Below, in pieces: positions 7,910 through 52,635 of a DNA stretch of 64,000 bases. The notes under the pieces are model-generated. The model saw only the letters and a list, made by a program, of their open reading frames with translations. It searched no databases and was not told where the DNA came from. Position 1 is the first letter of the stretch. Each line of letters begins with the position of its first letter. Position numbers and translations under genes: made by a program. Source of the stretch: Ostreococcus lucimarinus (Eukaryota); the NCBI GenBank assembly GCA_000092065.1, contig CP000582.1; one strand, written 5' to 3'.

Positions 7910-8004
7910 CGCGCGCGCGCGCGCGCGCCACTGGCGACGGGCGTCCGTCGATCGTCGTCGCGACCACCGGTCGCACTTTAAGCCTCGCCTCAACCGCCGT
8001 CGAC

Positions 8005-20142: not shown

Positions 20143-21336
20143 TCAGATCTCCCACTCGCCGTCTAAGAAGCGCTGCCGGAACTCCGTACCCTTGGCGATG
20201 ACGTAAAACACGGGATGACCCGCGAGCACGCACTCTTTGTCCTTGAACAAGTCCCCGAGCTTGGTTTTCTCGTTGAGCGAGCGCATGAACTGGTCTCGCG
20301 AATCCACCCTGCCCTTCGCCATGGCTTCGATTTCTTTTCGCGTGTCGTCGTCCACCTCGCGTCGCGTCACACCCGCGGCGTCTAAGAGCTTCGTCTCCAC
20401 CTGTTGCCACGTGTACGGCACCGCGGCGTTCGTTTGCCAATACACCTCGACCGAATCTCGAGCGTACGCGCCGCGCTCGTCCCACTCGAGCGGCGGCCCC
20501 GCGGGGTCGAATAGCACGTCCAAGTGCTCGCCGAGCGTCGAAGTTTCGCTCGCGGCCTCGACGACGTCGGTTTGCATGGATTCCGGGTACACGAAAAGAG
20601 TCCAGTAGGTCGCGACGCCGGTGGTGGCATCGATCGCGGGCAAGCGCTCGCCGCTTCCCAAACTCGCCGGCCCTATGCGAATCCCCTTAGATTTCATCGC
20701 CTCTACGTACGCGCGCACGCGCACCTTCTCTGCCGCGTCCAACGTCGCCTGTTGTTCTCGCTTCTCCACTAGCCGCTTCGCCTCGCGCAGCATCACCTTT
20801 AAATCTCGATTGTCCCCTTCGATTTCCAACCCGCCGACGCAGCAACGCGCGCATTCCTCCGCGCGTTCCAGCGCCAACGCCGCCTTCGCCGCGCGAAACC
20901 ACGCCTTGACGTTTCCACTCACCAACTCAGTCGCCTTAATCGCATCACTGTACGCCTTTCGATAATTCTTCAACAGCAATCCCGCGTGCGCGCGATTACA
21001 ATACAACGTCCCGTCGAGCGTCGCGTCGCCGCTCGCCGCCGCCAGTCCCGCGGTGTAATGCTCCACCGCGTACCGCGCGTACAGCTTATTCGCCACCCCG
21101 TACTTGACCGAAGCGTTGCCTTTCTCCTTGCATTTTTGCGCGATTTCCACGGGCGTGGCGTCGCGATTCGCGTCCTCGACGATGGCTCGAAGCGCGGCAA
21201 ACTCTGGGGAGGTTTCCTCGAGCCACTCGTCGCCTTCGCCGTCCCAAAACAGCGGCGGCAGCGCGTCGGTGAACGCTCGATCGCCGGGCGAAGGTTCGTC
21301 GGACGTCGACGGAGGCGTTCGCTCGGGCGCAGACAT
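20143..21336 (-). CDS. TPR-repeat protein, TTC4/Cns1-like (Hsp90 co-chaperone family)
   Basis: Three TPR-like repeats (KEKGNASVKYG...YARYAVEHYTAGL...YCNRAHAGLLLKNYRKAYSDAIKATEL...KAWFRAAKAALALERAEE) followed by a conserved C-terminal TTC4-type domain. ORF start 21510 is GTG; first ATG 21336 (MSAPERTPP). Confidence 0.55.
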   Translation of the reverse strand: MSAPERTPPSTSDEPSPGDRAFTDALPPLFWDGEGDEWLEETSPEFAALRAIVEDANRDATPVEIAQKCKEKGNASVKYGVANKLYARYAVEHYTAGLAAASGDATLDGTLYCNRAHAGLLLKNYRKAYSDAIKATELVSGNVKAWFRAAKAALALERAEECARCCVGGLEIEGDNRDLKVMLREAKRLVEKREQQATLDAAEKVRVRAYVEAMKSKGIRIGPASLGSGERLPAIDATTGVATYWTLFVYPESMQTDVVEAASETSTLGEHLDVLFDPAGPPLEWDERGAYARDSVEVYWQTNAAVPYTWQQVETKLLDAAGVTRREVDDDTRKEIEAMAKGRVDSRDQFMRSLNEKTKLGDLFKDKECVLAGHPVFYVIAKGTEFRQRFLDGEWEI

Positions 21337-21539
21337 CGCGACGCCGCGCGCGGAGGTGTGCGGCGGCGCGCGAGCCCGAGACGGCGACCGGGACGCGGCG
21401 ACCGGGACGAGCGCGATACTCAATGGTGCGTTGATATTACTGCGGCGCTGAGGCGAGATAGTGACGACGGCGAAAACGTCGCGGAACGCAACGCGCGTCG
21501 AACGCCGCACGATGGCGTCTTTCGCGGCGACTTCGAAAA

Positions 21540-22223
21540 TTAAACTTTTTGCAACTCGGTCTCCTTCGCCTTGGTGAGCTCGTCCACCTTCTTCACGTAC
21601 GACGCCGTCAAATCCTCCATGCTCTTCTTCAACTTTGCGATCTCGTCCTCACCGAACGACCCCGCCTTTTCCAACTTTTCGTACGCCTTCATCGCGTCCC
21701 GTCGCACGTTGCGCAGCGCAACCTTTCCATCCTCGCCGAGTTTACTCACGAGCTTCGCGAGTTCCTTTCTCCGCTCCGCCGTCAACGGCGGCACGTTCAA
21801 TCGAATGATGTTCCCATCGTTCGACGGGTTCATCCCGAGATCAGATTCATTAATCGCGCGTTCGATATCCTTAATCGCGCTCTTATCGAACGGTTGAATG
21901 GTGATGGTCTGCGCGTCCGGCGTCGACGCGTTCGCGATCGTCTTCAGCGGCGTCGGCGCTCCGTAGTAATCCACCTCGATTCGGTCCAACACCGCCGCGT
22001 TCGCCCGTCCCGTGCGCACGGTGCTGAAATCGTTCGCGATGGCGTCCATGGTTTTTTCCATGCGCTCCATGGCGTCCAGCTCGATCTCTTCCGGGTCGAC
22101 GTCTTCGGGTTCGTCGGCTTTGCCCTTGGCGCGCGCGATGACGGCGCGCGTTCGACGCGCCGCGCGCTTCGCGGCGCCGAGCGCGACGCGCGCGACGGCG
22201 GGTGATGCGAGTGACGCGCTCAT
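21540..22223 (-). CDS. RRF: Ribosome recycling factor, organellar (transit-peptide-bearing)
   Basis: VDYYGAPTPLKTIANASTPDAQTITIQPFDKSAIKDIERAINESDLGMNPSNDGNIIRLNVPPLTAERRKELAK is collinear with bacterial Frr. ATG 22223 (MSASLASPAVARV) gives a 35-aa A/R-rich presequence. An alternative upstream in-frame ATG at 22346 lies within a 28-bp direct duplication. Confidence 0.8.
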   Translation of the reverse strand: MSASLASPAVARVALGAAKRAARRTRAVIARAKGKADEPEDVDPEEIELDAMERMEKTMDAIANDFSTVRTGRANAAVLDRIEVDYYGAPTPLKTIANASTPDAQTITIQPFDKSAIKDIERAINESDLGMNPSNDGNIIRLNVPPLTAERRKELAKLVSKLGEDGKVALRNVRRDAMKAYEKLEKAGSFGEDEIAKLKKSMEDLTASYVKKVDELTKAKETELQKV

Positions 22224-22378
22224 GGCGCGCGCGTGAGGTCTCGCGCGCGTCGCGTCGCGGTGTGCGGCGTCGACGTCGACCCGAGGGTTCCGAAAGTCGC
22301 GACGCGCGCGTTCGACACATCGCGTCGCGTCGCGCGTTCGACACATCGCGCGCGCGCGCGACCGAGACGCGTGCGATC

Positions 22379-23252: not shown

Positions 23253-24365
23253 ATGGGAACCAGCGCGTCGAGAACCGCATCGAAAACCGCATCCATGTCC
23301 ACCACCGCGCACGCGTCCTCGTGCATGACTCCGGGCGCCTCGCGCGCGCCCGAATCCCACTTCCAAATGTTCGCGCACGACGACGAGTTGGCCGAGCGAG
23401 CCTGCGCCGCGGGCGTCGTGCGAAGCGTGTGCGCGGTGACGCTCGACGAGGCCAACGATTGGCGCGCGCGGTGCGAAGCGGCTTCGTTGACACCGAAACG
23501 AGACGATCGAGCGACGAGCGAGACGGCGCCGAGGCGCGCGCGAGGAAATCGCCGCCGAGGGCGACGTCACGAGCGTCAGATCGACGCGGCGCGCGAGCCG
23601 ACGACGGACGCGCGGGATAACGCGGATAAGCGCATGCTGCAAGACATCCTGCAAGACATTGAGGTCGTGGACACCGAAACGCTGAAGAGATCGATAGAGA
23701 CCGATCGGTTGGCGAGCGCGTTTCGCGGCGTCGTGGACGCGCGGGTGAAGACGATGATGGACTTCGTCGTCGCGTGGTGCGACGAAGCGCGCGATTTGGA
23801 ACGCGAGTGTCAAGAGACGTACGAAAAGACGTTGGAATCGACGATGCGCGAACACGAGCGCGCGTACGCACACCACGAGGACGCCACGCGGCGGTTTGAC
23901 AAGCTCGCGCAGGTGAAAGACGCGTCATTGGAGACGCGAAAGGAATTGGACGCGACGTCGACTGAAATCGCTGGCTTGGTCGCGACGCTAGAGCGCCTGG
24001 AGCAGATGATCAAGACGAAGAGCGAATCCTTCACGTCGTACTTCAACTCGCAGATTACGTTTTTGATTCGGAAGTTTGCTGACGGCGCGATCGACGGCAT
24101 GCGCGAGAGCGAAGTCGCGATCGCGGGGTCCGTGGGATCCGGCTCGATCGAGGCTTTGAAGCGAGACTTGCGCGAGTCGCCGCCTAAGAGCAAAATCGAG
24201 CTCGAATCCCCGCCGACGCCGCCGAAGCTGATGATCAAGCGTCGAAGCGCGAGTCCGACCCCGCGAAAACCACTACCGGTGGACGAAGGCGAGCTCGAGG
24301 AGGGAGAGATCGCACCGATCGAAAAAGGAGAGACGTCGGCGAGCGCTACGGCCGCCGCCGCGTGA
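23253..24365 (+). CDS. Hypothetical coiled-coil protein with N-myristoylation-type start (MGTSAS)
   Basis: ATG 23253; MGxxxS start; long heptad-like helical region (LERLEQMIKTKSESFTSYFNSQ); C-terminal P/S/E-rich tail. Confidence 0.45.
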   Translation: MGTSASRTASKTASMSTTAHASSCMTPGASRAPESHFQMFAHDDELAERACAAGVVRSVCAVTLDEANDWRARCEAASLTPKRDDRATSETAPRRARGNRRRGRRHERQIDAAREPTTDARDNADKRMLQDILQDIEVVDTETLKRSIETDRLASAFRGVVDARVKTMMDFVVAWCDEARDLERECQETYEKTLESTMREHERAYAHHEDATRRFDKLAQVKDASLETRKELDATSTEIAGLVATLERLEQMIKTKSESFTSYFNSQITFLIRKFADGAIDGMRESEVAIAGSVGSGSIEALKRDLRESPPKSKIELESPPTPPKLMIKRRSASPTPRKPLPVDEGELEEGEIAPIEKGETSASATAAAA

Positions 24366-24388
24366 TTCTCGGCGAGGTTCTCTACGTA

Positions 24389-24508
24389 CGATTTCCTCAC
24401 TACAACATCGCTTTTTTTTCTTCGCTACTGTCCTACTGTACTGTACAACGATTTCCTCACTACAACATCGCTTTTTTTTCTTCGCTACTGTCCTACTGTA
24501 CTGTACAA
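24389..24508. repeat. Perfect 60-bp tandem duplication in the convergent intergenic region
   Basis: gatttcctcactacaacatcgcttttttttcttcgctactgtcctactgtactgtacaac x2; AT-rich relative to the flanks. Confidence 0.9.
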
Positions 24509-24551
24509 CTTTGTCGTGCTACACGAAACATACTCCGATCGGTTGTTCGTA

Positions 24552-26948
24552 TCATCTAAATCTACGCACGAGCGCTAAACTCAACGCGCGCGCGCAAAAC
24601 GTTTCGGCGTCGACGGGCGAATCCTCGGCGAGCGCTTGCTCGAACAATGGTGCGCTCGGCGACGACATGTTCGGTACGGTGTCGACATCGATCACGATCA
24701 TCTCACCGTTGTCTAAATTTGCAAACGCATTGACTTTCGCGTACCCTTCGACTTGTAACGCGTCGCCCACGCGTCGAGCGCGTTCGCGCACGAGCCCGAC
24801 GACGCGTTCGGACAAGACTAATTTCGATTTGTCGATCGCCGATCGACCGTCGCGCGCGCGCACGCTCGGCGTGAACGCGTGTAATTTCCCGGGTTTGTCT
24901 CCGAAGACGACGATCTCGATCTCGATCCATCGTTTCGATCCGTCGTCTGGGTCGAGGACGATTTCGCCGTCGCCGCGAATGGAAACCTCCGCGGCGTCGA
25001 AGAATGGCTCGAACACGTACCCGCGCGCGGCGAGATTCGTGCCCTCGGGAAATTGCCCGCTCGCCATCGCCGCCGCGATGGACTCCGCGTACGCGAGCAT
25101 GTCGTTGTCGTTCATCAATCGCCGCACGCCACCGAAGGACGACTTGGTCACCGGTTTCACGATTACGCCGCGCGCCGTCGCGCTCGCGCCGCCGAGCGAC
25201 CCGACGACGTCCAACCAAAGACGCTTGGCCGATTCCGCGCGCGCGCGACCGCCCCACCCGCTCTCTTCCGTCGCCTTACTCACTAACGTCGCCGTCGGGA
25301 CGAATCGCTTATTCAAACACCCCACCCCTACGTCTCGCATGTTCCCCAACGCCTTGCTCGTCGCCGCCTTGTCCGCGCACACGCGACTAGCGAGCGGACC
25401 GCATCCGGTGTACGCCGCGCCCGAGGACACGCACAGTTGTTGTAAACTCCCATCGGGTTCACCCACGACGCCGGCGTTGAACACGATGGCGCCCTCGGAG
25501 GCGGCGAGCGAGAGCAACGCGCCCAAACGCGAGACGCGCGGCGTCGCGTCGAACGCGAGCGCCGCGTCGTCGCGCGGCGGCGAAATCCATAAATACTTTT
25601 CTAATTCCGCGCGCACGCGCCGAGCGGTGGCGAAGCGCCCGAGGTCAGGCATGCGCGGCGGAACGTCCGCGGACGACCACTGCGCGGGATTCACCGCGAA
25701 CGCGTACGGTAGCCGCCACGCCGGGGCGTCGACGAGCCCGTTTGAGTTCGCCGCGGGCGGCATCAAGAGCACGGGCGTGACGTCAATCGTCGGGATGTTT
25801 CGAAGCGTCAAGTATAAGTTACGCCCGGCGTAGCACGAACTCAGGCGATCGCCGCCCGACGCGGCGCCGCCGAAGAGAACGTACACGCGCATCGACGCCG
25901 AACTCGTCGAAGCGGGCGCGGGCGCGGGCGCGGCGACGATTTTCCTCGTCGACGCCTCGCGGCTCGTCGCGTTCTTCACCAAGTGTTCGATCACGGACTC
26001 CATGGACAGACCCACGGCCGCGGCGTGCACGAACATCTTCGACCACGCCCTCGCGGTTCCCGAGACCGGCGAATCGGAAAGCTCGACGCGCACGAAGGAG
26101 GTCGCCGGCGCCGAGGTCGAAGTCGCCGCCTCGTCTTCGTCTTCGTCTTCGTCTTCGTCGGCGTCGTCTTCATCTTCCTCGACGCCGTCGTACGCCACCG
26201 CGCCTTCATCACTCGCCGCGCAACTCACCAACCGCCCGCCTCGAACGTCGAAATCGCGCGACCCCGCGGCGTCCGCGAACGCGGCTTCCGCGCGCGCGCG
26301 AATCGCCGCCGCCACGAGACGCGGGTACCGCGTCGTCGATTCCACGTCCAACGCCACGCACGGCCGCTTCCGCGACCGCGTCGTCGACAGCGTCGTGACG
26401 TAAAAATCAAACCCCGCCGCGCCCTCGTCGCCGTCGCCGTCGTCGAAATCGCGCGAAGTCGCCCTCGCCGCCGCCCGCGCGCGTCCCGCGCGCGCGTCCC
26501 CCGTCGTCGCCAGCGCGCAATCCGCCCACGCCCCGTCGTCGCCGCGCGCGACGACGACCGCCTCGCACCGCGCCCCGACGCGCGCGTTCACGCACGCCGC
26601 CATCGTCGTCGCGTGCGCGAGCGCGTCCGTCCCCGCGCGCGAATCGCCGTCGCTCGGAAACACCGCGATCGTTTTCCGCCCGTCCGACGTCGTCGCCGCG
26701 CACCGCGCGCGTCGTCGCGCGAACGCGCGCGGTGCGCGCGAATCGCCGTCGCTCGGAAACACCGCGATCGTTTTCCGCCCGTCCGACGTCGTCGCCGCGC
26801 ACCGCGCGCGTCGTCGCGCGCCGCGCGTTCGTCCGCTTTGGTGCGGCGCCCGCGCCGGCGCGCGCGCGAGCCGCATCGACGCGCGCGACGCGATGTGCGT
26901 CGTCGTCGAAAAAGTGCACTTTTTCGCCCGTCCCGAATGGATTCGCAT
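24552..26948 (-). CDS. DDL: D-alanine--D-alanine ligase-like ATP-grasp enzyme with long low-complexity N-terminal region
   Basis: C-terminal 380 aa collinear with Ddl: MRVYVLFGGAAS (Ddl N-terminus), GEPDGSLQQLCVSSGAAYTGCGPLASRVCADKAATSKAL (cf. GEDGTLQGMLEL...GSGVLASALSMDK), ATP-grasp core. ATG at 26948. The N-terminal 400 aa is acidic/low complexity (poly-DE) and includes a 99-bp tandem duplication; the true N-terminus or upstream introns are unresolved. Confidence 0.6.
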   Translation of the reverse strand: MRIHSGRAKKCTFSTTTHIASRASMRLARAPARAPHQSGRTRGARRRARCAATTSDGRKTIAVFPSDGDSRAPRAFARRRARCAATTSDGRKTIAVFPSDGDSRAGTDALAHATTMAACVNARVGARCEAVVVARGDDGAWADCALATTGDARAGRARAAARATSRDFDDGDGDEGAAGFDFYVTTLSTTRSRKRPCVALDVESTTRYPRLVAAAIRARAEAAFADAAGSRDFDVRGGRLVSCAASDEGAVAYDGVEEDEDDADEDEDEDEDEAATSTSAPATSFVRVELSDSPVSGTARAWSKMFVHAAAVGLSMESVIEHLVKNATSREASTRKIVAAPAPAPASTSSASMRVYVLFGGAASGGDRLSSCYAGRNLYLTLRNIPTIDVTPVLLMPPAANSNGLVDAPAWRLPYAFAVNPAQWSSADVPPRMPDLGRFATARRVRAELEKYLWISPPRDDAALAFDATPRVSRLGALLSLAASEGAIVFNAGVVGEPDGSLQQLCVSSGAAYTGCGPLASRVCADKAATSKALGNMRDVGVGCLNKRFVPTATLVSKATEESGWGGRARAESAKRLWLDVVGSLGGASATARGVIVKPVTKSSFGGVRRLMNDNDMLAYAESIAAAMASGQFPEGTNLAARGYVFEPFFDAAEVSIRGDGEIVLDPDDGSKRWIEIEIVVFGDKPGKLHAFTPSVRARDGRSAIDKSKLVLSERVVGLVRERARRVGDALQVEGYAKVNAFANLDNGEMIVIDVDTVPNMSSPSAPLFEQALAEDSPVDAETFCARALSLALVRRFR
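26641..26838. repeat. 99-bp tandem duplication (2 copies) inside the Ddl N-terminal coding region, in frame (33 aa)
   Basis: gaatcgccgtcgctcggaaacaccgcgatcgttttccgcccgtccgacgtcgtcgccgcgcaccgcgcgcgtcgtcgcgc repeated at 26641 and 26740. Confidence 0.85.
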
Positions 26949-27984
26949 TCACAGACGCGCGCGCAGTCGAGATTCCGGATTCGGCGCGCGCGCGAACGAA
27001 CGCGACGGAGGCGTGCGGCGTGAGCGTGAGCGTGAGCGGGACCGTGAGCGTGAGCGGGACGTGATGAATGAAGGGCGCGTGTGGTGCGCCTGCAGAAATT
27101 CGTGACGACGCGTGCGCGACCGTCACGGGGTATGGAATTTAGTTTTCAACCAGCAATATTCCAAGCTCAGTTAAGACTTCACAGCTTTGGATATAACCCC
27201 ATGCGCAAAGATGCGACGCGGGACGCGCGGGACGCGCGGGTGATGGGACGCGTGGACGCGATGGCGATTTCGAGGTTATGGGTCAGGGCGTGCGATGGGC
27301 GTCGCCGCGCGCGGCGCGCGGTCGCGCGCGACGAAAGACGCGTCGGTCGGCGCGAGACGACGACGACGTCGTGCGTCGCGCGTCGTCGTCGTCGTCGTCT
27401 CGCGTCGTCGTCGTCGTCGTCGCGCGCGTCGTCGTCGCGGGAAAACGCGGCGACCGACCGAACGACACACTCGCGCGCGGCGCCGACGCGCGCGACGAAG
27501 GTGGTGATTTTTTACCACGGGTAGAATAAATTGGTTGAATCTCCTTGAATGGAATATAAAAAGGGTTGTATGTGGTAAAAGGCAACAGACAAGCACCTCG
27601 TTCTTATACTCCGGAGCGTTCGAGGGACGACGCCGCGCGCGGCGATCGGGTGCGCGCGCGACGGGGCCGGGGCGATTTCGAGGTTACGGGCGCGAAACAC
27701 GGCGCGCGCGACGGCGCGCCTCTCGTGCGCCGACCGATGCGTCGCGCGCGCGCGAACGGTCGCGCGCGGTGCGTCGACGCGCGACGCGCGCGCGACGCGA
27801 CGCGCGCGCGCGATACCGTCGAGCGCGCGTCGATGGATCGCGCGCGCCGTCGACGTCGACGCGCGCGCGCGTCGACGACGCGCGCGCGGCGCGTCGGCGT
27901 CGGCGTCGGCGCGACCCGTAACCCGCAAACGCGCGCGGCGACGTCGCGAATGCGTCTGGGGGGGGCGCGCGCGACTTCGCGCGC

Positions 27985-50749: not shown

Positions 50750-51415
50750 CTAAAAGCACATCTTAATCCGCGCGTCGTAATCCTTGATCTCGCGTATCGT
50801 GTCGCTCACCTCCTTCGCCGAAAACACAAACATCGTGCACCATATCGACGAGTACTTTTTTCCGCGCGGCTTCACCTCCACCTCCACCTTCGCCTCCCCG
50901 GCCGCCCCCGCGATCTTTTCGACCAATCCAGAGACAAATCCCTCCTCGCTCGCCGTCTCCGTCGTCGTCACGACTTGATACGTGTACTTTGCCGGGAATT
51001 GTTGTATCGTCTCCATGATTTCGCCGTCGTCGCGCTCGCTCGTGTCATACGGCGCGTCGTACTCCCCTCGCAGCGCTCTGACGTACAGGTCGAATCGCGT
51101 GGCGCCGAATTCGTTCAGCGGTTCGCCGGTCTTCGCGTCGATCAAGTCGCCGCGCTCGTCGAGGACGAGATCTTTTGCCCAGTCCGGCGTCGCGGCGTCG
51201 TCACCTCCTTCCGGAACGGCGCGCGCGCGGGCGCGGCGTTCGCGGTGCGCGCGCGCGGGCGCGACGCGCGACGCGCGCGCGTGTGTGGTCGCGCACGACG
51301 CGGTGCGGTGCGAGCGCGCGCGGGCGGCGAGCATGGCGGCGCGATGTGACGCGGCGTCGACGGCGCCGAGCGAAGTCAAAGCGGTACGATTACACGTCGC
51401 GCGAGAGTGGCTCAT
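50750..51415 (-). CDS. YbeD/DUF493 (UPF0250)-like small protein with N-terminal presequence
   Basis: C-terminal about 100 aa: YTYQVVT...[11 protein letters not shown]...[43 protein letters not shown] resembles the YbeD fold family. ATG at 51415 overlaps the DapF stop (ATGA); second in-frame ATG 51334. Confidence 0.5.
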
Positions 51416-52635
51416 AAGAAATATTTACCGGCGAACACGGGCTCGGCGGGACCGGTCATGATGATTCTGCCGTCGCTCTCGCGCCATTCGATCTCGAGCG
51501 GGCCTCCCGGGAGCTCGACGGTGCACCGTCGATCGACGCGGCCCTCGAGGACGCCGGCGACGACGGTCGCGCAGGCACCGGTGCCGCACGCGAGCGTGGC
51601 GCCGGCGCCGCGTTCCCACACGTGCATCTTGACGTAGTTTCTGTTGACGACTTGGGTGAACTCGGTGTTCGTTCGCGCCGGGAAGCACGGATGCGACTCA
51701 AACTTGGGGCCGACGACGCTCAACGGGAATTCGTCCAACTTAAGACCCGGACCGTCAGCCTCGCCACCGGCGCGACCGAACGTGATGCAGTGCGGGTTAC
51801 CCATAGACACCGCGTTCACTAACCACTTCTCACCGTCCACGTCCATCTCCGCGCGCACAACCTTACCGTCTTGGGTCGCCGCGAGCGTCGTCGGGACTTC
51901 GCTCGGCTCAAAAATCGGCATCCCCATATCCACCGCCACCTGTCCATCCGCCCGCATCTCCGGTTGAATCAACCCCGCCAGCGTTCCAACCTTGTACTTT
52001 TTCGGCGGCATGGCGTCTAAATCGCTCACGAAACGCGCCAGGCATCGAATTCCGTTTCCGCACATCTCCGGTTCGCTACCGTCGCTGTTAAACATCCGCA
52101 TCGAGTAATCCTCCGACGCGTCGTTCGGCGGCATGGCGAATATCACCCCATCACCACCGATTCCAAAGTTACGATCGCACATCTTCGCCGCGGCTTCGCT
52201 CGACATCTTCACAGTCGCGCTGTCGCGGTTGTCGATTAATATAAAGTCGTTCCCGAGGCCCTGGTACTTGATGAAATCGATCGTCCGCGACGCCTCGGCG
52301 ACGACGCGCGCGCGTCCGACGCGCGTCGCGCGGGCGTGCGACGCGCGCGGCGTCGATCTGCGCGGCGAAAAACGCGCGCGCGGTGAGTCTGCGGTCGAGC
52401 GCGCGCGTCGACGCGTCGCGAGTGGATATGGACGTCGCGCGACCGAACGCGCGCGCGCGGCGGCGACGGGGCGCGCGAGACGAACGCGCGCGCGCACCTC
52501 GAGGCGAGCGAAACGGTGGCGCCGCGCGCGAGCATGGTGCGCGGTCGTCGGACGAGCGCGGGGCGCGAAGTGCGGCGGCGCGCGGCGGCTGGGCGGGTCG
52601 CGACGACGTTCGTCTCGAGGCGGTTCGGTGCACAT
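51412..52635 (-). CDS. DAPF: Diaminopimelate epimerase with long R-rich N-terminal presequence
   Basis: [37 protein letters not shown] (both catalytic Cys), C-terminus [15 protein letters not shown] collinear with DapF. The only in-frame ATG before the domain is 52635. Confidence 0.8.

Follow-up and report, generated by a model that had tools for sequence, protein, structure and literature searches.

RESULTS

A degenerate tandem DDL gene in Ostreococcus lucimarinus

The DNA analyzed here, referred to below as the window, is a stretch of 64,000 nucleotides (contig CP000582.1) of the nuclear genome of the green alga Ostreococcus lucimarinus CCE9901. Its gene of interest is a relative of the D-Ala-D-Ala ligases (Ddl; EC 6.3.2.4; NCBIfam TIGR01205/NF002378) that occupies an uninterrupted open reading frame (ORF) of 798 amino acids plus stop on the minus strand (24552..26948). 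A first-pass annotation, made from the letters alone, had called the ORF a Ddl homologue in an algal nuclear genome, and both parts of that call were borne out. Residues 116 to 798 are 100% identical in BLASTP to XP_001416315.1/ABO94608.1, a "predicted protein" of O. lucimarinus CCE9901 that is listed in UniRef as A4RTG6, "ATP-grasp domain-containing protein." In their Table S5, van Baren et al. (2016, PMC4815162) enter XP_001416315 for O. lucimarinus in the "Ddl" column, so that a DDL homologue at this locus is already on record. What we describe is the state of the protein. The protein is orthologous to the tandem DDL of Viridiplantae and colinear with it over both modules, with one module reduced to a relic and the active site of the other dismantled. 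Intact orthologues lie at six syntenic loci.

Family models recognize this relationship only below their thresholds. A Pfam scan of the full ORF detected no Dala_Dala_lig_N and gave Dala_Dala_lig_C 13.4 bits, short of the gathering score of 24, and in the NCBIfam scan the Ddl models were the sole matches (best E = 2.4e-8), with 31 to 33 bits against cut-offs of 243 to 262. An assignment from these two scans alone was rejected as insufficient. The protein sequences in the PDB gave a similar picture with phmmer, where the best match had E = 1.7e-4 and every match with E < 0.35 was a Ddl or VanA. The C-terminal domain that had been described as a clear Ddl is therefore Ddl-related, as the profile and fold comparisons below establish, but it is not clear by the standards of Pfam and NCBIfam.

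The first homology search returned 16 proteins, 15 of them Ostreococcus-type sequences. The other, P0016, covers 78% of the query at 31% identity. P0045, the full-length member of the P0016 cluster, belongs to a family of two-module DDLs of about 950 amino acids that spans Physcomitrium, Klebsormidium, Mesostigma, Pseudoscourfieldia, and angiosperms. When 1.84 billion representatives were searched exhaustively with a profile, tandem DDLs again came out as the nearest relatives, and for two of them, P0072 and P0077, a single colinear match spanned the whole profile. By hhalign, the profile of residues 346 to 798 aligned to module 2 of the plant and algal tandem DDL with a probability of 100% (E = 1.1e-66). 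In a crude neighbor-joining tree without bootstraps, the members of the degenerate family form one clade, which lies with module 2 of the tandem DDLs.

An AlphaFold (AF2) model built from 14 homologues had a mean predicted local distance difference test score (pLDDT) of 57, with most of module 2 at 65 to 90. The top 50 Foldseek matches of the full model in the PDB were all Ddl or VanA, with E values down to 1.8e-13 and target template modeling scores of 0.62 to 0.74. The model thus predicts a three-domain Ddl-type ATP-grasp fold for module 2. The top sequence and fold matches are all Ddl or VanA, and an origin from glutathione synthetase or another ATP-grasp enzyme was rejected: the C-terminal 450 or so amino acids are related to Ddl and not to another ATP-grasp family, as the first-pass annotation had supposed.

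Loss of active-site residues in module 2

Module 2 (residues 351 to 798; 24555..25898, minus strand) combines the predicted full three-domain Ddl-like fold with a degenerate active site. Active-site positions were compared in a MAFFT alignment of E. coli DdlB, both modules of 10 canonical tandem DDLs, and 14 members of the degenerate family. The DdlB reference was checked to be identical to PDB 2DLN/1IOV, and its residue numbers are used throughout. The functional roles of the DdlB residues, K215 and Y216 included, are known from structural and mutagenesis work. In both modules of the canonical tandem DDLs, E15, H63, E68, K97, K144, S151, E180, E187, K215, R255, D257, N272, and G276 are unchanged, and variation is confined to S150 (S/C), Y216 (Y/F), E270 (E/D), and S281 (S/T); two of the canonical module-1 sequences are N-terminally incomplete, and conservation was counted where the sequence is complete. 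In O. lucimarinus, E15 is replaced by D, H63 by a gap, E68 by P, and S151 by F, and the substitutions R255K, D257N, E270D, N272D, G276N, and S281A follow in the C-terminal part.

The most drastic change is the deletion of the omega loop with K215 and Y216, which all 20 canonical modules have and none of the 14 degenerate family members has. At the deletion site (24822..24854, minus strand) O. lucimarinus reads RDGRSAIDKSK in place of the canonical LSLEEKFQGGTGVNLTP, and the equivalents of K215 and Y216 are gone (alignment block DdlB 205 to 228). A remnant of the catalytic and Mg2+-binding motif lies at 24654..24740 on the same strand, where the canonical ARxDxF...ExNTxPGMT has become AKVNAF...DVDTVPNMSSPS through the five substitutions from R255K to G276N listed above. 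The hhalign alignment gave the same omega-loop gap and the same substitutions independently.

The positions concerned also vary among the orthologues, with D, A, or V at K97, T or S at K144, R at E187, K, V, A, S, or Q at R255, N, A, or E at D257, and D, S, or A at E270. E180 is the sole ATP- or Mg2+-binding residue that is invariant across the degenerate family. Taken together, the deletion of the omega loop, the loss of catalytic residues, and the variability between orthologues make it very unlikely that the protein is still active as a D-Ala-D-Ala ligase. Two orthologues from marine metagenomes, P0186 and P0187, have an intermediate set of residues: both keep H63, E68, K97, K144, E180, E187, D257, E270, and N272, and P0186 additionally keeps the GSS loop, while both are already without the omega loop and have R255, G276, and E15 replaced. 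This intermediate set suggests a stepwise decay in which O. lucimarinus would represent a late stage.

A relic of module 1 in the N-terminal half

The N-terminal half had been described as unlike a second Ddl domain, and the protein as unlike the tandem Ddl of land plants; as far as descent is concerned, neither description held. A profile of residues 116 to 345, for which only Ostreococcus-type sequences were used and the canonical P0016 was taken out, aligned by hhalign over residues 180 to 336 to residues 311 to 480 of P0045, the C-terminal subdomain of its module 1 (probability 96.4%, E = 1.4e-9). The alignment contains a gap of about 34 residues exactly at the omega loop. The N-terminal half is thus the remainder of a decayed first Ddl module, of which about the last 155 residues remain (residues 180 to 336; 25941..26411, minus strand), comprising the C-terminal ATP-grasp subdomain without the omega loop; the N-terminal and central domains are gone. 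Residues 172 to 345 modeled alone by AlphaFold, with the canonical sequences left out of the alignment, reached a pLDDT of 69, with a predicted secondary structure of β-β-α-β-β, an acidic loop, and β-α-α. A search of the PDB sequences with the N-terminal relic profile returned nothing relevant; a match to hexon (E = 0.33) was due to the acidic tract.

The poly-D/E tract noticed earlier is real. It reads EEDEDDADEDEDEDEDE, lies within the loop of the relic (residues 257 to 273; 26130..26180, minus strand), and was also reported by Tandem Repeats Finder; the pLDDT is below 50 at residues 256 to 281 around it. Its position is that of a variable insertion in module 1 of the canonical tandem DDLs (alignment block DdlB 250 to 285).

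N-terminal extension and 99-bp duplication

Residues 1 to 179 (26412..26948, minus strand) take the place of the two domains, N-terminal and central, that module 1 has lost. This extension is predicted to be disordered, with a pLDDT below 50 at residues 1 to 114 and 116 to 178, and it is weakly constrained, as described below. Its start is basic and rich in hydroxylated residues: the first 50 residues contain 14 R and K and no D or E and are rich in S, T, and A, and a similar acid-free N-terminus rich in R, S, T, and A is found in the orthologues with upstream starts. The extension is probably an organellar presequence plus linker, and the protein is probably targeted to an organelle, which by ancestry would be the plastid.

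Tandem Repeats Finder returned the 99-bp in-frame duplication that the first-pass annotation had noted (26635..26827, minus strand; residues ~41 to 105), with 2.0 copies and 97% matches. The 33-amino-acid unit is present in one copy in P0003, a 95%-identical variant, and in two diverged copies in P0002. Since the RefSeq coding sequence starts at M116, the duplication falls outside the annotated protein, on its upstream side. It has the appearance of a recent and neutral strain-level polymorphism without evident functional meaning.

Selection and conservation

The ratio of nonsynonymous to synonymous substitution rates (dN/dS) was calculated by the Nei-Gojobori method for three independent close pairs. 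It was 0.11, 0.16, and 0.06 in module 2 and 0.26, 0.27, and 0.30 in the module-1 relic. In the N-terminal extension it was 0.92, 0.67, and 0.72, and 0.63 in a fourth, nearly identical pair; next to the 0.06 to 0.16 of module 2, the extension is fast evolving. Module 2 is thus under purifying selection. Intact ORFs of 750 to 840 amino acids are present in at least five divergent lineages, with identities down to ~40%. Of about 448 positions in module 2, 91 are invariant in the degenerate family, and 62 of these 91 are absent from the canonical consensus. They include an inserted W-G-G-R motif (residues 565 to 568; 25245..25256, minus strand) that is absent from the canonical tandem DDLs.

The gene neighborhood is conserved as well. 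The downstream neighbors, two unknown genes, the RRF gene (21540..22346), and a Wheel-domain gene (20143..21510), are kept in six of six related loci. Upstream, an R3H/DEAH helicase gene is common to those Ostreococcus loci that reach far enough, and in one locus the importin-beta gene is shared too. The immediate neighbor, a plus-strand ORF of 370 amino acids (23253..24365) with no Pfam match, has a counterpart of 337 to 487 amino acids, also without a Pfam match, in the same position and orientation in loci L002 to L007, and it is a conserved neighbor of the DDL-like gene. P0186 lies at 8001..10313 of L007, a locus with a G+C content of 59% that has upstream Ins(1,3,4)P3-kinase and AMPK-CBM genes in common with the loci of P0013 and P0015. 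The G+C content of the metagenomic orthologue loci (P0012 to P0015, P0186, and P0187) is 56 to 59%, which speaks against Bathycoccus prasinos, with its G+C content of ~48%, as their source; that of the window is 62%.

Gene model and flanking sequence

The RefSeq coding sequence (XP_001416315, 683 of 683 residues identical) starts at M116 and covers 24552..26603 on the minus strand. M116 corresponds to nucleotide 26603, M25 to nucleotide 26876, and M1 to nucleotide 26948. The orthologues P0012 to P0015 have Leu in the M116 column, so their start must lie further upstream, and the true start in O. lucimarinus is therefore probably M1 or M25 and not M116. The O. tauri model, P0011 (494 amino acids), begins within the last helices of the module-1 relic and, next to the other orthologues, appears to lack its N-terminal part. 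The gene models are inconsistent between species, and the comparison of orthologues supports an upstream start with a basic presequence.

Large overlapping ORFs in other frames and on the other strand, for example, 24511..25833 and 25983..27023 on the plus strand, were rejected as shadow ORFs of high-GC sequence, because it is the minus-strand frame that is conserved at the codon level. Two microsatellites lie just upstream of the ORF, (GCGTGA)x8 at 27018..27064 and a (CGT)~25 array at 27367..27437, and the block around them, between 26 and 28 kb of the window, has the highest G+C content of the window (70%). On the other side, a perfect 60-bp tandem repeat (24388..24509, 2.0 copies, 100% matches by Tandem Repeats Finder) takes up most of the 186 bp between the ORF at 23253..24365 and the DDL-like ORF, which converge with their 3' ends. 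The C-terminus of P0003 is 11 residues longer and ends in …VRIFRLYEQPIVVCFV, compared to …VRRFR here (24552..24580). Both repeat number and the 3' end of the gene differ between P0003 and the window, that is, between strains.

DapF and the peptidoglycan pathway

The window also contains, as had been noticed, a DapF (diaminopimelate epimerase) gene (51412..52635, minus strand; Pfam DAP_epimerase, E = 5.5e-61). Its ORF is 407 amino acids long and the DAP_epimerase domain starts at residue 121; the N-terminal extension of about 120 amino acids may be a plastid presequence. The proximity of DapF had been taken as a pathway link to the Ddl homologue. The two genes are 25 kb apart with about a dozen large ORFs between them, those scanned encode unrelated eukaryotic proteins (an RNA helicase, an importin-beta, an RRM protein, and a Sas10/Utp3 protein), and we know of no operons in the O. 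lucimarinus nuclear genome; a functional link by proximity was rejected. DapF is needed in plants and algae for the synthesis of lysine via diaminopimelate. The gene is real but functionally unconnected to the DDL relic, and lysine biosynthesis explains its presence.

A survey of three Ostreococcus genomes and Bathycoccus found only DDL and MURE (van Baren et al. 2016, PMC4815162). For O. lucimarinus, O. tauri, RCC809, and Bathycoccus alike, its Table S5 has "NF" under MurA to MurD, MurF, MraY, MurG, and PBP. The Mur, MraY, and PBP genes not found in this survey and the loss of catalytic residues together mean that the gene is no evidence for a peptidoglycan pathway, and the retained precursor pathway that had been proposed, with the absence of other Mur genes named beforehand as what would speak against it, was not upheld.

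DISCUSSION

We think it probable that the DDL-like protein of O. lucimarinus is a repurposed pseudoenzyme that descends from the tandem DDL of Viridiplantae, has decayed enzymatically, and is kept by selection for another role, probably in an organelle. The reasons are an intact syntenic gene, a low dN/dS, and the many residues that are invariant and specific to the family, including WGGR. The starting point would have been a two-module tandem DDL. Module 1 would have been stripped of its N-terminal and central domains, with the C-terminal subdomain (residues ~180 to 336) surviving together with its poly-D/E loop. Module 2 (residues ~351 to 798) would have kept the Ddl fold and lost the omega loop, the D-Ala1-site residues E15, H63, and E68, and R255 and G276. 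Most likely D-Ala-D-Ala would no longer be made, and the old Ddl shell might serve as a binding or scaffolding protein, imported into the organelle, presumably the plastid by ancestry, via a fast-evolving basic presequence in which the 99-bp duplication would be a neutral strain polymorphism.

The view of the first-pass annotation, that this is a working Ddl, is highly improbable. In sequence as in fold the protein is indeed closest to Ddl, it is named "Ddl" in the published survey (PMC4815162), MurE (XP_001422580) is retained in the same genome, the gene is under purifying selection, and K97, K144, S150, E180, and E187 are kept in O. lucimarinus. Against this, the omega loop is deleted and E15, H63, E68, R255, and G276 are replaced, although all complete canonical modules keep them, the remaining ATP and Mg2+ positions vary between orthologues, and scores of the family hidden Markov models are far below their cut-offs. 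The enzymes with which such a ligase would cooperate, MurA to MurD, MurF, MraY, MurG, and PBP, were not found in the Ostreococcus genomes surveyed (PMC4815162), and DapF, many ORFs away, is accounted for by lysine biosynthesis. At the opposite extreme, a functionless pseudogene, expressed or not, on its way to being lost is scarcely credible. Such decay would agree with a module 1 cut by half and a massive loss of catalytic residues, with the low-complexity tracts, polymorphic duplication, and near-neutral dN/dS of the N-terminal region, and with gene models that differ between species. It is largely refuted by the selection data, with dN/dS values of 0.06 to 0.16 in module 2 and 0.26 to 0.30 in the relic, and is further contradicted by uninterrupted ORFs with conserved synteny in at least five divergent lineages and by the 91 invariant positions of module 2.

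A neofunctionalized ATP-grasp enzyme, in which the Ddl shell would ligate or phosphorylate another substrate and the family-specific residues would form a new active site, is a more serious competitor but still unlikely in our judgment. The strong purifying selection on module 2 and the 62 family-specific invariant positions with the inserted WGGR are what such an enzyme would display. O. lucimarinus keeps the two lysines that contact the ATP phosphates and has carboxylate or amide side chains at the Mg2+ positions, and P0186 and P0187 keep a plausible ATP/Mg2+ site, which makes this alternative somewhat attractive. However, no ATP- or Mg2+-binding residue but E180 is invariant across the family, K97 having changed to D, A, or V, K144 to T or S, D257 to A, and E270 to S or A in different members, and a conserved ATP-dependent reaction is therefore hard to reconcile with the data. 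The omega loop, which closes the active sites of ATP-grasp enzymes, is moreover absent from all members.

Several points weigh against a repurposed, catalytically dead protein and should be kept in mind. The strong purifying selection would fit a new enzymatic function equally well. The five residues kept in O. lucimarinus, from K97 to E187, belong to the canonical active site, the N/D/D found at its three Mg2+ positions may be enough to bind metal, and residual nucleotide binding or another ATP-dependent reaction may persist. The residue numbering depends on alignments with only 15 to 20% identity to bacterial Ddl, though the key motifs are aligned alike by MAFFT and hhalign. The quality of the AF2 model (mean pLDDT of 57 from 14 sequences) is modest, and Foldseek gave no significant match for the isolated relic (best E = 1.2). 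Organelle targeting is deduced from composition alone, and the absence of the Mur genes comes from a single published survey.

In the literature that we searched, no earlier description of the degenerate state of the protein was found, with the limit that the italics marking incomplete genes in Table S5 are unreadable in the text copy (PMC4815162). The degenerate state of the O. lucimarinus DDL appears, within that literature, to be previously undescribed. It matters because arguments about which algae and plants retain a plastid peptidoglycan layer draw on tables of the presence and absence of "peptidoglycan genes," in which the entry for Ostreococcus and Bathycoccus, DDL and MurE and nothing else, has so far gone unexplained. 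A truncated tandem DDL that has its active site dismantled and is still under selection should not be counted as evidence of D-Ala-D-Ala synthesis. The RefSeq "predicted protein" could be renamed a DDL-like pseudoenzyme. The Ostreococcus gene is also a tractable case for a nonenzymatic plastid function of a former peptidoglycan enzyme, since O. tauri is transformable. A more speculative idea, which we regard as possible but doubtful, is that the Ddl shell serves the plastid in a way unrelated to peptidoglycan, perhaps in its division or in gene expression and possibly together with MurE, and did so before catalysis was lost. If true, this would explain why DDL and MurE are retained by nearly all green plants and algae, including those that no longer have a peptidoglycan pathway, and the Ostreococcus family, devoid of catalytic residues and tightly conserved elsewhere, would be a natural separation-of-function allele that exposes the second role.

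Compared to the bacterial Ddl and the VanA-type D-Ala-D-Lac ligases (DdlA, DdlB; PDB 2DLN, 4ME6, 8EVV, 3SE7), the O. lucimarinus protein has an identity of 13 to 20% and a two-module architecture with one module truncated. E15, H63, E68, K215, Y216, R255, D257, E270, N272, and G276 of the bacterial enzymes are lost or altered in it, and no MurF that could use the product was found in O. lucimarinus (PMC4815162). A looser parallel, by analogy only, may be drawn with the MurE of angiosperms, a plastid-derived peptidoglycan gene that is likewise kept in lineages without the full pathway; MurE belongs to the Mur ligase family and is not an ATP-grasp enzyme. The pale-green AtMurE knockout is not rescued by the moss homologue, which has been interpreted as a change of function, a reading that the authors themselves question (PMC9954125).

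The tandem DDLs of Viridiplantae are much closer. Tran et al. (2023, PMC9954125) describe At-DDL of Arabidopsis and Pp-DDL of Physcomitrella each as two DDL enzymes fused into one, and like them the O. lucimarinus protein belongs to the same lineage, is nuclear encoded, and has an N-terminal extension. It falls short of them by ~150 to 250 amino acids through the loss of the N-terminal and central domains from module 1, has no omega loop in either module, and carries replacements of catalytic residues kept in all complete modules of the 10 canonical proteins. The canonical tandem DDLs listed carry PF01820 and PF07478, whereas the O. lucimarinus protein has no Pfam match at threshold. Knockout of the moss DDL gives giant chloroplasts (as cited in PMC9954125), whereas the Ostreococcus gene is not known to have such a function. 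The closest counterparts are P0186 (770 amino acids) and P0187, in which Dala_Dala_lig_N is still present in the precomputed Pfam annotation and Dala_Dala_lig_C is only faint. They share with the O. lucimarinus protein the whole arrangement of presequence, module-1 relic with acidic loop, and module 2, as well as the synteny with the RRF and Wheel-domain genes.

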